IMG/VR virus record: IMGVR_UViG_3300023174_000034
DNA: 64,000 nt
Reading direction: 5' to 3' (one strand)
Origin: a virus
Lineage: Duplodnaviria > Heunggongvirae > Uroviricota > Caudoviricetes
The notes beneath the pieces are model-generated. The model searched no databases. It saw nothing but the letters and a program-made list of their open reading frames with translations, and was not told the origin of the DNA. This document shows, one piece after another, positions 3,001 to 48,099 of the stretch. How positions within the stretch are numbered: the first letter of the stretch is position 1; every line of letters starts with the position of its first letter. The position numbers were made by a program, and so were the translations under genes.

Positions 3001-6000
3001 TGCCACAGGCGCATACCTAAGTGCAGGTGGTATCAGTGCTACATCTGGCGTACTAAGCGTTGGCAATATTATCAGCAGTGGCACTCGAGCTGTGGTTGGC
3101 GGACTCACAATTGAGAATGGCGCATTTGGCAGTGTTGCAAGTTTGGCGGTTATCGCTGGCGCAACATTTGGTGGCGACGTTGCTATCACTGGTAATATCA
3201 CAGCAGGTGGCCTACGTAAATATGCTCAAACAACCGCGCCTACTACTCCAGTTGTGGGTGACGTCTGGTACAAGACTGATACCGATGTTTATTACCAGTA
3301 CATCAACGATGGCACCAGCAAGTACTGGATTGACTATTCAAGTGCAACAGTAAGCAATGCAAGCCCAACCAGCCCACAGAGCTTGCAAGACCTCCAGATT
3401 GTTTCGGGTACAGCAAGCACAAGTACCACTAGTGGTGCGCTACAAGTAACCGGCGGTGCTGGCATCAGTGGAAATGTCACAGCAGGAAATGTTGTTACTG
3501 CTCAAGTAACTGCTGACAAATTTACATACGCAAATGGCGTGAGTATACTGGCCGGAAATGAAGGCACATATTCAAACGCAAACGTAACAGCATACCTAAC
3601 AGCTCGTAGCGTTACTATTGCAGACGGAAACATCACTGCCAATGGGGGCTATTTGGCCGCAGGTGGATTTGTTGCCACTGCTGGAAACATCCGTACTACA
3701 TCTGCCAACATTGGCGGGGTTGTAATTGAGTCAGGTGGCATTGGTCAACTGGCAAGCATTGGGGTAATTGGTTCAGCAACCATTGGTGCTGATCTAGCAG
3801 TAACAGGTAATATCACTGGTGGCGGATTGCGTAAGTATGCACAAGACACAGCCCCAACGAACCCAGTGGTTGGCGATGTTTGGTACAAGACTGATACTGA
3901 TGTGTACTATCAATACATCAATGACGGAACAACTAAGTTTTGGGTTGATTATGTGGGTGCTACTGTAAGCAATGCAAGTATCACCAGTAGCCAAATTTCA
4001 TATGATATTGTGGTCACAACTGACACGCAAAGCACAAGCACCACAACAGGCGCTATCCGTGTACAGGGCGGCATTGGCTTAATTGGTAATATCTATACCA
4101 CAGGTATTGCTGACATTGGTGGTAACTTACGTGCTGGTAACATCACAGCAAATAATAATCTACAAACAAATACTCTGGCAGTGATTCAAAATGCCACAGT
4201 TGGTGGTGTATTAACATCTGGCACATTGTCGACTGGCAACTCATCAGTTGGTAACATTGCTGGTTATGGATTTACTACCAACGCAGGTAATTTGACTGCT
4301 ACTGGTGCTTACTTTGCCGCAGGTGGCATGAGCTCTACCAATGGCAATATCACAGTTGGTAATATCAACGCATACAGCTTTATTGTAAGCAATGGCAATA
4401 TTACCAGCACAGGAACCTACGCACGAGTTGGTGGCTTAGAAATCGTCAACGGTGGCTTTACTAATCTAACAAGTTTGGGTGTAGTTGGAGCCGCAACAAT
4501 TGGTGCAGACCTAGCAGTAACTGGCAACATCACAGGTGGTGGTCTACGCAAGTACACAGGTACTACTGCACCAGCAAATCCAGTGACCGGCGATGTCTGG
4601 TACAAAACAGACACAGACGTTTACTATCAATACATCACAGACGGAACAAGTTCATTCTGGGTCGATTATACCAGTGCTACAGTTGCCAACATCACGCTAG
4701 CAAACGCACAATATGGTACTGATGTAGGATTTGTAAGCGGCACAACAAGCACAAATCAAACAAACGGTGCGGTGACTGTGATTGGTGGTGTAGGGGTCAC
4801 TGGCAATATCAACTTAACAGGTCGTGTGACTGCACTAGATACCATTACTGGTCAGCGCATTATTTCCAACACAAGCATTACAGGTGCTACCCTGACTGTA
4901 ACAGGCGACACCGCAGTTGGCAACTTAATTGCCGGCAACATCACTGGTTATGGATTTACCACAAACAACGGCAACGTTGTTGCAACTGGTCAATTGACTG
5001 TTGGTGGACTAGCACAAGTTCCAGGCAACTTGACTGCTACCGGGTCTTACTTCTCCGCAGGCGGACTAACTTCTACCGCAGGCGCTATCACAGGTACAGG
5101 CTTTAGCATCACTGCTGGCAATATTATTACCACTGGACAAAAAGCAGTAGTAGGTGGGCTAACAATTGAAAACGGCGCATTGCCTAGTTTGCCAAGCATT
5201 GGGGTAATTGGTTCAGCAACCATTGGTGCTGATCTAGCAGTAACAGGTAATATCACTGGTGGCGGCTTACGAAAATATGCACAAACAAGCACACCTGCAA
5301 ATCCAGTAGTGGGTGATGTATGGTACAAAACTGATACTGATGTTTATTACCAGTATATCACAGACGGAACCACAAACGTTTGGGTTGACTACACCAGTGC
5401 AACTGTTGCCAATATTACTTTGGCAAATGCACAGTATGGCTCAGACGTTGGTTTTGTAAGCGGTACAACAAGCACAAATCAAACAAACGGTGCAGTGACA
5501 GTGATCGGCGGCATTGGCGTAACTGGCAACATCAATCTAACAGGTCGTGTGACTGCACTAGATACTGTCACCGGCCAACGCATTATTTCCAACACAAGCA
5601 TCACAGGTGCTACTTTAAGTGTAGCAGGTGACTCAAGTGTTGGCAACCTAACTGCTGGCAATGTCAGTGGTTACGGGTTTACCACAAACAATGGAAATGT
5701 AACTGCAACAGGTAATATAACTGGATACGGATTTGTAACCAGCAATGGTAACCTAAGCGCATCCGGCGCTTATTTCTCCGCAGGTGGAATGACATCCACT
5801 AACGGTAACATCACTGTTGGTAACATCAACGCATACAGTTTCATTGTAAGCAACGGTAACATAACCAGCACAGGTACCTATGCTCGAGTTGGTGGACTTG
5901 AAATCGTTAATGGTGGGTTTGGTTCACTGGCAAGTTTGGGTGTAACAGGCGCCGCAACATTTGGAGCCAATGTTGATATCACAGGTCGTGTGACAGGTGG

Positions 6001-45904: not shown

Positions 45905-45933
45905 TTGACAGCATTGCTAAATATCTCTACAAT
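45905..45933 (+). promoter_or_regulatory. sigma70 promoter of the attenuated leader
   Basis: TTGACA-17-TACAAT. Confidence 0.85.
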
Positions 45934-45987: not shown

Positions 45988-46128
45988 ATGAAATCGACAT
46001 TCGTTCTCAACTGCAAACAGCATAGCCAAGCATATTCATTTATGCCGGTGGCCTTGTGGTCTGCGACTGAGATTAGTAATGATCGCACACTACCAGGCAC
46101 CAAGGGTCCAGGAGATTCGCATAGTTAA
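45988..46128 (+). CDS. Putative attenuator leader peptide (46 aa, all 20 amino acids)
   Basis: AAGGA RBS at 45971; MKSTFVLNCKQHSQAYSFMPVALWSATEISNDRTLPGTKGPGDSHS*. Confidence 0.8.
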   Translation: MKSTFVLNCKQHSQAYSFMPVALWSATEISNDRTLPGTKGPGDSHS

Positions 46129-46160
46129 CACAAATTAACTCAGCAAACTCCAAGGACCCT
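46103..46160 (+). promoter_or_regulatory. Antiterminator hairpin
   Basis: AGGGTCC/GGACCCT, GGAG/CTCC and AGTTAA/TTAACT nested pairings. Confidence 0.75.
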
Positions 46161-46191
46161 AGGCTTAAAAACCCTGGGGTTTTTTGTTTTT
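46156..46191 (+). terminator. Intrinsic (attenuator) terminator
   Basis: ACCCTAGG-9nt-CCTGGGGT followed by TTTTTGTTTTT. Confidence 0.85.
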
Positions 46192-47153: not shown

Positions 47154-47376
47154 TTTGAGAGTGTCAGCAAGTACAGTCACGCTAATGAGGTTTCTTCGAA
47201 GGACCAAGTTAGTAAAAGGGGACGGGTTCAACTCCCGGCCGATCGCTTGAATGGGATCGGCGCAGATGGTTGCTAACTGGACAGGTACCCAAGTGATATC
47301 CATCGTGCTCGAGGTCAGGCTAGGCGGCCGGTAAGTCCTGAATAAATCTACGATAAAAGCGGCGTAGGCTCTCAAA
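47154..47376 (+). ncRNA. Putative ~220-nt structured RNA
   Basis: TTTGAGAGT/GCTCTCAAA closing stem, GCCGATC/GATCGGC hairpin, T-arm-like GGGTTCAACTCCC. Confidence 0.55.
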
Positions 47377-47547: not shown

Positions 47548-47765
47548 AGAACGTTCTGCCCTAATCAGCAGATAGTGTGACCCGCACGATGAGAAGTGGT
47601 GTGATAGCCAAGGGTGGTAGTCTTCTTACCAAAAGGCCGCTGGCAATGCGAGAACGGAACCTGTCGGGAAGTGGGTGGAGGCCGTGCGTGATGAAAGACT
47701 AATTGGGGCAACCTGACCAAATTTCTGATGCGGTATAATTACCACCGGGGTCGCCGAGCATTTTT
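47548..47765 (+). ncRNA. Putative ~215-nt structured RNA
   Basis: GC-rich non-coding spacer with multiple stems and a GATGAGAAG module. Confidence 0.45.
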
Positions 47766-47786
47766 AATTTAACATTGGAGAATGAC

Positions 47787-47807
47787 ATGAAACGAGGTAA
47801 ACTCTAG
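47787..47807 (+). CDS. Minigene MKRGKL* upstream of the tRNA-Lys pair
   Basis: GGAG RBS at 47777-47780; ATG AAA CGA GGT AAA CTC TAG. Confidence 0.55.
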   Translation: MKRGKL

Positions 47808-47867
47808 TGTCACTCTAGGCATCCGTATGGTCTAGGGTTGGCACGTAAAATCAAACGATACGTACAA

Positions 47868-47943
47868 CCCTGTGTGGCGCAGTTGGTAGCGCAACGGACT
47901 CTTAATCCGCTGGTCGTCAGTTCGAGCCTGACCGCAGGGACCA
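47868..47943 (+). tRNA. tRNA-Lys(CTT)
   Basis: Cloverleaf, ACCA. Confidence 0.9.
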
Positions 47944-47946
47944 TAT

Positions 47947-48022
47947 GGAAGCATAACTCAATGGCTAGAGTACCCGGCTTTTAACCGGATAGTTGTGGGT
48001 TCGAGTCCCACTGCTTCTACCA
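47947..48022 (+). tRNA. tRNA-Lys(TTT)
   Basis: Cloverleaf, ACCA. Confidence 0.9.
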
Positions 48023-48093
48023 TATAAAAACATACTACGCACGGTGAACAGCCCGTCCCAAGGAACTTGAGAGGATAGTGTGTTTCTATATGG
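48023..48093 (+). ncRNA. Small closed-stem RNA
   Basis: (ACCA)TATAAAAACATACTA/TAGTGTGTTTCTATATGGT stem around a ~38-nt insert. Confidence 0.5.
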
Positions 48094-48099
48094 TATTAT

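Follow-up and report, generated by a model that had tools for sequence, protein, structure and literature searches.

Why does a lysine-rich reading frame of six codons, with its own ribosome-binding site, stand directly before two tRNA-Lys genes in a phage tRNA array? The question was raised by an earlier note on a 64,000-nucleotide stretch of tailed-phage DNA (hereafter the window). It proposed that the position of a ribosome on this minigene selects between two hairpins, one of which captures the start of the first tRNA. All the parts that it listed were present, and it missed two further helices (H0 and H3) and a loop–spacer pseudoknot. Comparison of homologues indicates that the element is conserved and bigger than first described. 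We regard it as probably a codon-sensing, attenuator-like RNA switch that would control maturation of the phage’s own tRNA-Lys precursors, the translation and maturation steps being those that we infer.

The lysine cassette and its genomic setting

The window is a segment of a large tailed-phage genome, with matches to tail sheath, tail tube, terminase, and SSB, and a RecA-like ORF assigned by inspection. Its + strand carries 31 tRNA genes, and related contigs reach up to 349–373 kb. The lysine cassette sits within the tRNA array, 3′ of promoter-like sites at 45905 and 46494. The window scan detected neither a promoter of its own nor a + strand terminator near the element, and intrinsic termination was rejected for lack of the latter. 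An alternative genetic code was also rejected, as TAA, TGA, and TAG are ordinary stops in the window and no suppressor tRNA is present.

All features given below lie on the + strand. The Shine–Dalgarno sequence GGAG (47777–47780), part of segment 1 of the switch, precedes the minigene M-K-R-G-K-L-stop (47787–47807), which reads ATG (47787–47789), AAA (47790–47792), CGA, GGT, AAA (47799–47801), CTC, and TAG (47805–47807). Its control codons are the AAA at codon 2 and the penultimate AAA. The genes of tRNA-Lys(CUU) (CTT anticodon gene, 47868–47943) and tRNA-Lys(UUU) (TTT anticodon gene, 47947–48022) follow, both recognised by ARAGORN and Rfam. Ribosome-binding site, minigene, and tRNA order were all where the earlier note had placed them.

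Helices between the minigene and the first tRNA

Hairpin H1 (47807–47844; segments 2:3, the ON state) starts at the G of the stop codon, and its outer GTGTC/GGCAC is invariant. In the window H1 had an energy of −16.9 kcal/mol (z −4.24, 0/200 shuffles as good), and the mean across 101 distinct homologues was −18.5 kcal/mol. H1 positions were paired in 90% of cases, compared with 24–54% for slid controls. Two-sided changes were seen at 7 of the 14 pairs, and 0/500 shuffles reached the covariation score.

Hairpin H2 (47834–47871; segments 3:4, the OFF state) showed −13.7 kcal/mol (z −4.64, 0/200 shuffles as good) and captures nt −3 to +4 of tRNA-Lys(CUU). Folding confirmed the pairing of tRNA nt 1–4 (CCCT) that had been claimed. 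H2 with its own partner gave −11.3, compared with −8.8 for permuted partners and −4.9 for other tRNAs; the homologues are related and permutation ignores relatedness, so these and all later permutation figures are not p-values. Compensatory swaps (U-A/A-U and G-C/U-A) were present in H2, and both hairpins thus showed the covariation in relatives that had been proposed as a check. As both need 47834–47844, H1 and H2 are mutually exclusive, which agrees with the original description. Among the homologues no U-run was found after H2, which continued into tRNA sequence in all of them.

Helix H0, found by folding longer stretches, pairs GGAG (47777–47780) and TGACAT (47783–47788) with 47807–47816 and hides the ribosome-binding site and the start codon. 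Its energy was −8.3 kcal/mol, compared with −4.8 kcal/mol for shuffled upstream sequence. H0 covariation was not seen among the homologues because its partner strand is invariant.

The pseudoknot would join CGTAT in the H1 loop (47824–47828) with ATACG in the spacer (47858–47862). The same ATACG alternates between this pairing in the ON state and the inner stem of H2 in the OFF state. The effect was modest (own −4.62; permuted −4.05 with sd 0.12 and, among 10,000 permutations, a best value of −4.52), and covariation was visible as several pair types: CGTAT/ATACG in the window, and CATGT/ACATG, AGTAT/ATACT, GTAATT/AATTAC, and GCGTA/TACGC elsewhere. We read this as a probable pseudoknot, which in the ON state would protect both the anti-tRNA strand and the H2 toehold. 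Two loci, L049 and L057, have a duplication-like insertion of ~33 nt (ACATTAAAGAA twice) in the spacer that separates hairpin 1 from tRNA-Lys(CUU), with the remaining layout kept.

Conservation of the minigene

Minigene conservation in relatives, the other check proposed, was examined with several scans. In total, 202 distinct homologous cassettes were found, and 202/202 precede tRNA-Lys. An exact-pattern scan gave 46 IMG/VR matches, with tRNA-Lys 81–84 nt after the ATG wherever the downstream sequence sufficed; at one of the 46 (L031) it was recognised only with a lower ARAGORN threshold. Since parts of the minigene were fixed in the first two scans, the conservation claims rest on the scans with freed codons and on the minigene-blind scans. 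When codons 3–6 were left free, 117 of 119 distinct matches had Lys at codon 5; the two exceptions had no tRNA, and codons 3, 4, and 6 were variable. With codon 2 free, five new non-Lys matches were inspected and all were without a tRNA. Two minigene-blind scans, anchored only downstream of hairpin 1, produced 89 further loci linked to tRNA-Lys; each of them had AAA-NNN-TAG-TGTC and an ATG-AAR in frame. AAA-NNN-TAG-TGTC was present in 136/136 tRNA-Lys-linked anchors. Judged from these comparisons, the association of minigene and tRNA-Lys is not chance.

The minigene has 6, 7, 8, or 9 codons, with length differences of whole codons only, and always starts with ATG-AAR (in three cassettes scored as having 3 codons, an in-frame ATG lies upstream). 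Lys is found at codon 2 and at the penultimate codon in all cassettes, and the invariant Lys-X-TAG-TGTC adjoins hairpin 1. Given the whole-codon length changes and the invariant Lys-X-TAG, the penultimate Lys, the stop, and hairpin 1 therefore form a rigid unit. The first Lys moves, shifting by 0–3 codons relative to hairpin 1, and the distance of the penultimate Lys is fixed. An SD-like 4-mer precedes the minigene in 112 of 114 homologues.

The family was seen solely in uncultured contigs; a blastn search of 50,697 GenBank phages with the leader gave no match. A GTDB scan gave 73 pattern matches, two of them tRNA-linked, on short contigs in a Candidatus Planktophila bin (L148) and a Crocinitomicaceae bin (L157). 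These two cassettes are probably phage DNA in the bins, so they are not host evidence. Two cassettes share one contig (L119, + strand, 4034–4220 and 3623–3794); one is UUU-first (MKRGKR), the other CUU+UUU (MKASAKQ).

The conserved frame could also be read as a source of product, either a basic micro-peptide or a lambda bar-like minigene which drains tRNA-Lys by peptidyl-tRNA drop-off. The K/R-rich sequence, the strong ribosome-binding site, and AAA at codon 2 suit such a product, but the minigenes encode 49 different peptides, Arg is encoded by CGN only, and codons 3 and last covary as a small RNA hairpin (−2.3, compared with −1.25 permuted). A product would also leave the covarying helices to the tRNA ends unexplained, and we consider it very unlikely. 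In the window the small hairpin is GAG/CTC, with the penultimate AAA in its loop. Comparison suggests that the Arg/Leu/Pro/Gln variation is explained at the RNA level by this hairpin. Conservation of the penultimate AAA may also be partly RNA-level, because the codon lies in the covarying hairpin loop.

The alternative offered by the earlier note, that H1 stimulates UAG readthrough, fared badly. An invariant TAG with a stable hairpin, or hairpin with pseudoknot, directly after it is what readthrough or recoding would be expected to use. However, the H1 lengths of 36–41 and 44 nt place all three frames after the stop, and the extended peptides end after 3 to >49 codons, share no conserved sequence or product, and would enter the tRNA. 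H1 has the G of TAG in its first base pair (G-C in 60/60), which accounts for the TAG, and the window genes use all three stops in the ordinary way, with no suppressor tRNA. Readthrough is therefore extremely improbable.

A proposed clamp on the ends of both tRNAs

On folding longer stretches a third helix, H3, was seen, in which TCCGTATGGTC (47822–47832) pairs with GACCATATGGA (47939–47949) in the OFF state. The anti-tRNA strand consists of the H1 loop and the start of the 3′ arm. Its target consists of GACCA from the 3′ end of tRNA-Lys(CUU), a TAT spacer, and GGA, which is nt 1–3 of tRNA-Lys(UUU). In the window H3 reaches only these three nucleotides of tRNA-Lys(UUU) and then meets an A-A mismatch. 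tRNA-Lys(CUU) has C1-G72; its 5′ end is clamped by H2 and G72–A76 by H3. This tRNA (47868 in the window) starts with C1 in 91/91 homologues counted (CCC 52, CCA 32, CCT 6, CTC 1), and C1 pairs with the leader and puts G72 inside H3.

The H3 duplex showed −17.1 with its own target, compared with −12.6 (sd 0.26) when permuted and −5.4 for other tRNAs, and in 105 of 111 loci the best target was tRNA-Lys(UUU). Because the H1 loop is misaligned by MAFFT, which lowers the H3 pair counts, pairing was scored in the best register against a permutation control; 91% of the H3 cells were paired, compared with 81% permuted. Compensatory changes comprised G-C/A-U swaps at tRNA +3 and +4, and the spacer showed several pair types. 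In the UUU-first cassettes (n = 23) the CUU-specific clamp was lost (−4.7), but the UUU clamp was kept (−15.9) as one ~20-bp hairpin.

H3 is the strongest covariation case among the helices. For the helices as a whole, the weight of the covariation evidence rests on how many distinct pair types occur and on the clamp swap in the UUU-first cassettes. The clamp had been assigned to tRNA-Lys(CUU). Capture by H2 bears that out, but comparison indicates that the clamp conserved across every cassette type is the one on tRNA-Lys(UUU) via H3.

Codon choice and the tRNA set

tRNA-Lys(CUU) decodes AAG only. It is included in 183 of the 202 distinct cassettes, and the penultimate codon is AAA in 183/183 of these. 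The other 19 have tRNA-Lys(UUU) alone, and 9 of them have AAG as the penultimate codon. AAG anywhere in the minigene was found in 10/183 cassettes with tRNA-Lys(CUU) and in 15/19 without it. AAA/AAA was seen in three UUU-first cassettes that have a CUU gene a short way downstream. Tree-aware independent pairs, taken on a cassette tree without the Lys-codon columns, gave 5:0 with a median p of 0.06, which does not reach 0.05 on this short DNA tree. The codon choice matches the expectation for a tRNA-Lys(UUU) sensor, and the tree-aware test is suggestive only. The AAA/AAG pattern argues for decoding rather than for peptide or RNA shape, and tRNA-Lys(UUU) appears to be the tRNA whose function the minigene senses.

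The same data bear on the idea that H2 and H3 serve processing or storage whatever the lysine status, for example as an RNase III or RNase E guide which splits the tandem Lys tRNAs or as a protected reserve, with the minigene merely bringing a ribosome to remodel the RNA. H2 and H3 together give ~20 bp on one strand, the UUU-first ~20-bp hairpins are near RNase III substrate size, and the OFF fold dominates at equilibrium. However, no conserved minigene was found before any other tRNA of the same arrays, and the other tandem tRNAs there do not pair with the leader. The invariant Lys codons, the fixed Lys-X-TAG spacing, and the AAG seen when tRNA-Lys(CUU) is absent would likewise be left unexplained. 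We find such a helix distinctly unlikely; were it a reversible reserve that a stall sets free, it would count as a variant of the codon-sensing switch.

Ribosome position and folding models

The ribosome was modelled by masking the RNA beneath it, and ddG(ON−OFF) was compared for each position. The helicase boundary of the ribosome lies at +11 from the P-site. The lowest ddG was obtained with masking up to the base before H1, which, given this boundary, corresponds to the penultimate Lys in the A site. This position was better than no ribosome by 5.9 kcal/mol and better than a ribosome at the stop by 7.9 kcal/mol, each in 29/29. A stall at codon 2 was 4.3 kcal/mol better than no ribosome. The earlier note had a stall on the first Lys open the switch; a Lys-codon stall did favour H1, but the codon at fixed distance from H1 is the penultimate Lys. 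With a larger footprint (toeprint edge 13–14 nt past the A-site), a penultimate-Lys stall would cover the outer stem of H1, and the switch would open with a codon-2 stall alone.

During transcription H1 was predicted to form first (P 0.98). With tRNA(CUU) complete in the window, P(H1) was 0.00 without a ribosome, 0.93 with a stalled one, and 0.00 with one at the stop. The predicted switch follows ribosome position. The claim that a ribosome at the UAG sets the OFF state agreed with these models, but it was incomplete, as the switch is likewise predicted to be OFF without a ribosome (H0 + H2 + H3). In the predicted ON fold, H1 and the probable pseudoknot leave both cloverleaves free. In the predicted OFF fold, H0 lies over the ribosome-binding site and H2 and H3 open both acceptor stems, with the CCA of tRNA-Lys(CUU) buried.

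Once the 5′ end of tRNA(UUU) was present, OFF was lower in 2D equilibrium for all ribosome states. At the best ribosome position the ON−OFF difference was on average +4.0 kcal/mol in CUU-first and +1.6 kcal/mol in UUU-first cassettes, and +7.5 kcal/mol in the window, in a folding model that takes no account of the pseudoknot, of tRNA tertiary structure, or of irreversible cleavage. As OFF is favoured at 2D equilibrium for the full transcript, ON must therefore be kinetic or tertiary-stabilised, and this stabilisation is the weakest step of the model.

Proposed mechanism

The core of the original proposal, that ribosome position chooses between hairpin 1 and a tRNA-capturing helix without a terminator, came through the sequence tests (in-frame minigene, invariant Lys, covariation, and masking models). 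In the mechanism that we propose, H1 would fold first in transcription and leave the ribosome-binding site exposed. When Lys-tRNA(UUU) is available, the ribosome would reach the stop and unwind H1 from its first base; H2 and H3 would then clamp the tRNA ends, RNase P would be unable to cut, and the precursor would stay inert or be degraded. With tRNA-Lys(UUU) cleaved, uncharged, or in short supply, the ribosome would wait at an AAA in its A site; H1 together with the pseudoknot would persist, and both tRNAs would fold and be processed. RNase P requires an intact acceptor stem. We infer that RNase P access is the step gated here, and that the output is maturation rather than decay or Rho.

The same Lys-codon sensor could have that other output. 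Unfolding of the tRNAs in the OFF fold would lead to Rho-dependent termination or pausing and gate transcription of the rest of the array, instead of or besides tRNA-Lys processing. Known attenuators act on transcription, opened tRNA bodies could act as Rho loading sites, tufB-thrT is said to provide a precedent, and the cassette lies inside a long transcript from the promoters at 45905 and 46494. However, the element has no intrinsic + strand terminator nearby, the homologues lack a U-run after H2, and the pairing is aimed precisely at the two Lys acceptor ends. The downstream tRNAs also vary between phages (Ile, Met, His, Pro, Tyr), so polarity would strike unrelated genes. We consider this output unlikely and retain control of tRNA-Lys maturation as the preferred reading.

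Such maturation control likely serves to replace host tRNA-Lys(UUU) when it is needed, and would add a tier specific for lysine to an array that has a 20-amino-acid attenuator at its head. Host tRNA-Lys(UUU) is a target of PrrC, PARIS/AriB, and Schlafen defences (PMC12409363, PMC13056530), and its cleavage stalls ribosomes at AAA (PMC11464382, PMC12409363, PMC13056530). It is on balance plausible that the cassette closes a feedback loop, in which failed AAA decoding would free pre-tRNA-Lys(UUU) and pre-tRNA-Lys(CUU) from the acceptor-stem clamp. This would be attenuation with tRNA folding and RNase P access as output, and an automatic counter of giant phages to host tRNA-Lys anticodon nucleases.

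Comparison with known regulatory systems

Leader-peptide attenuators (trpL, hisL, pheL, thrL) resemble the cassette in having a ribosome-binding site and a short ORF with cognate control codons, and in regulating genes that relieve the sensed shortage. Both have segments 1:2, 2:3, and 3:4 (here H0, H1, and H2/H3), with a stall giving 2:3 ON and full or no translation giving 3:4 OFF. The cassette has the translatable leader with conserved control codons, the exclusive helices selected by the ribosome in the models, and targets cognate to the codon. However, its 3:4 helix is not an intrinsic terminator; it lacks a U-run, is made of the tRNA genes’ own ends, and would block acceptor stems rather than RNA polymerase, the targets being tRNAs. 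Because the terminator is lacking, the cassette was not classed as a leader-peptide transcription attenuator. It further differs in its two separated Lys codons instead of a run, its place inside a transcript rather than at a promoter, and its being phage-encoded.

In the translational attenuators ermCL, cat, and cmlA, a leader-stalled ribosome also refolds the RNA and frees a downstream element without termination. There the freed element is a ribosome-binding site and the stall depends on drug and nascent peptide, whereas the cassette would free a tRNA acceptor stem and stall by codon hunger, with a peptide that varies in sequence. No downstream ORF with a ribosome-binding site was found as a target of the switch, the targets being tRNA ends.

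In the Salmonella thrU-tyrU-glyT-thrT-tufB transcript, ribosome speed reportedly sets mRNA–tRNA pairing within the same transcript (Brandis et al. 2016 are said to have described this). In that autoregulation the tRNA is upstream and the output is tufB expression, whereas in the cassette the tRNAs are downstream and are themselves the output, and a single codon type serves as the signal. T-box riboswitches likewise sense the status of one tRNA species and raise the supply of related functions, but they bind the tRNA directly and the cassette would sense it via the ribosome. Rfam, T-box included, gave no match over 47777–47867 at E ≤ 1, nor over the leader in six homologous loci.

As in phage counter-defence by tRNA-Lys(UUU), which covers T5 against PARIS/AriB (PMC11464382, PMC12409363), PrrC, and Schlafen (PMC13056530), the phage tRNA-Lys(UUU) could here replace cleaved host tRNA. 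Codon-sensing control of a phage tRNA is not described in the accessible parts of this work (PMC11464382, PMC12409363, PMC13056530), whereas the cassette has a predicted one. The literature searched, with poor coverage of subscription journals, contained no published description of this control, and the Weinberg 2017 main text no such motif. The comparative evidence supports the cassette well as a real element, which would represent a new form of ribosome-mediated attenuation.

Why phages carry tRNAs is a long-standing question, and the current answer is that they make up for host tRNAs that defence nucleases cut, often tRNA-Lys(UUU). If the proposed mechanism is true, the cassette would be direct genomic evidence for this answer, testable with a 250-nt construct, and tRNA maturation would be a third output of ribosome-mediated attenuation, beside termination and RBS masking. 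The element could possibly be used as a reporter for tRNA-Lys-cleaving immunity.

Other structured elements of the array

At the head of the array we observed a 46-codon leader ORF (45988–46190) in which all 20 amino acids are present. It overlaps an antiterminator/terminator, and CCAAGGGTCCAGGAG at its 3′ end pairs with the 5′ arm of the terminator, which ends in a U-run. Many of the other loci examined have diverged array-head leaders with 19–20 amino acids and this same terminator. Ribosome sensing appears to operate at two levels in these phages, through the array-head leader and the lysine-specific cassette.

A multi-stem non-coding element of ~220 nt with a T-arm-like hairpin lies between tRNA-Asp and tRNA-Cys (~47154–47376), and a GC-rich structured spacer of ~210 nt lies immediately 5′ of the cassette (~47552–47761). 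Neither gave an Rfam match, and the 3′ end of the spacer is similar to three other loci (L007, L011, L036). An AU-rich stem beginning TATAAAAACA(C/T)A(C/T)T often stands 3′ of tRNA-Lys(UUU) (48019–48094 in the window, and in homologues), and it is possibly the processing boundary of the cassette.
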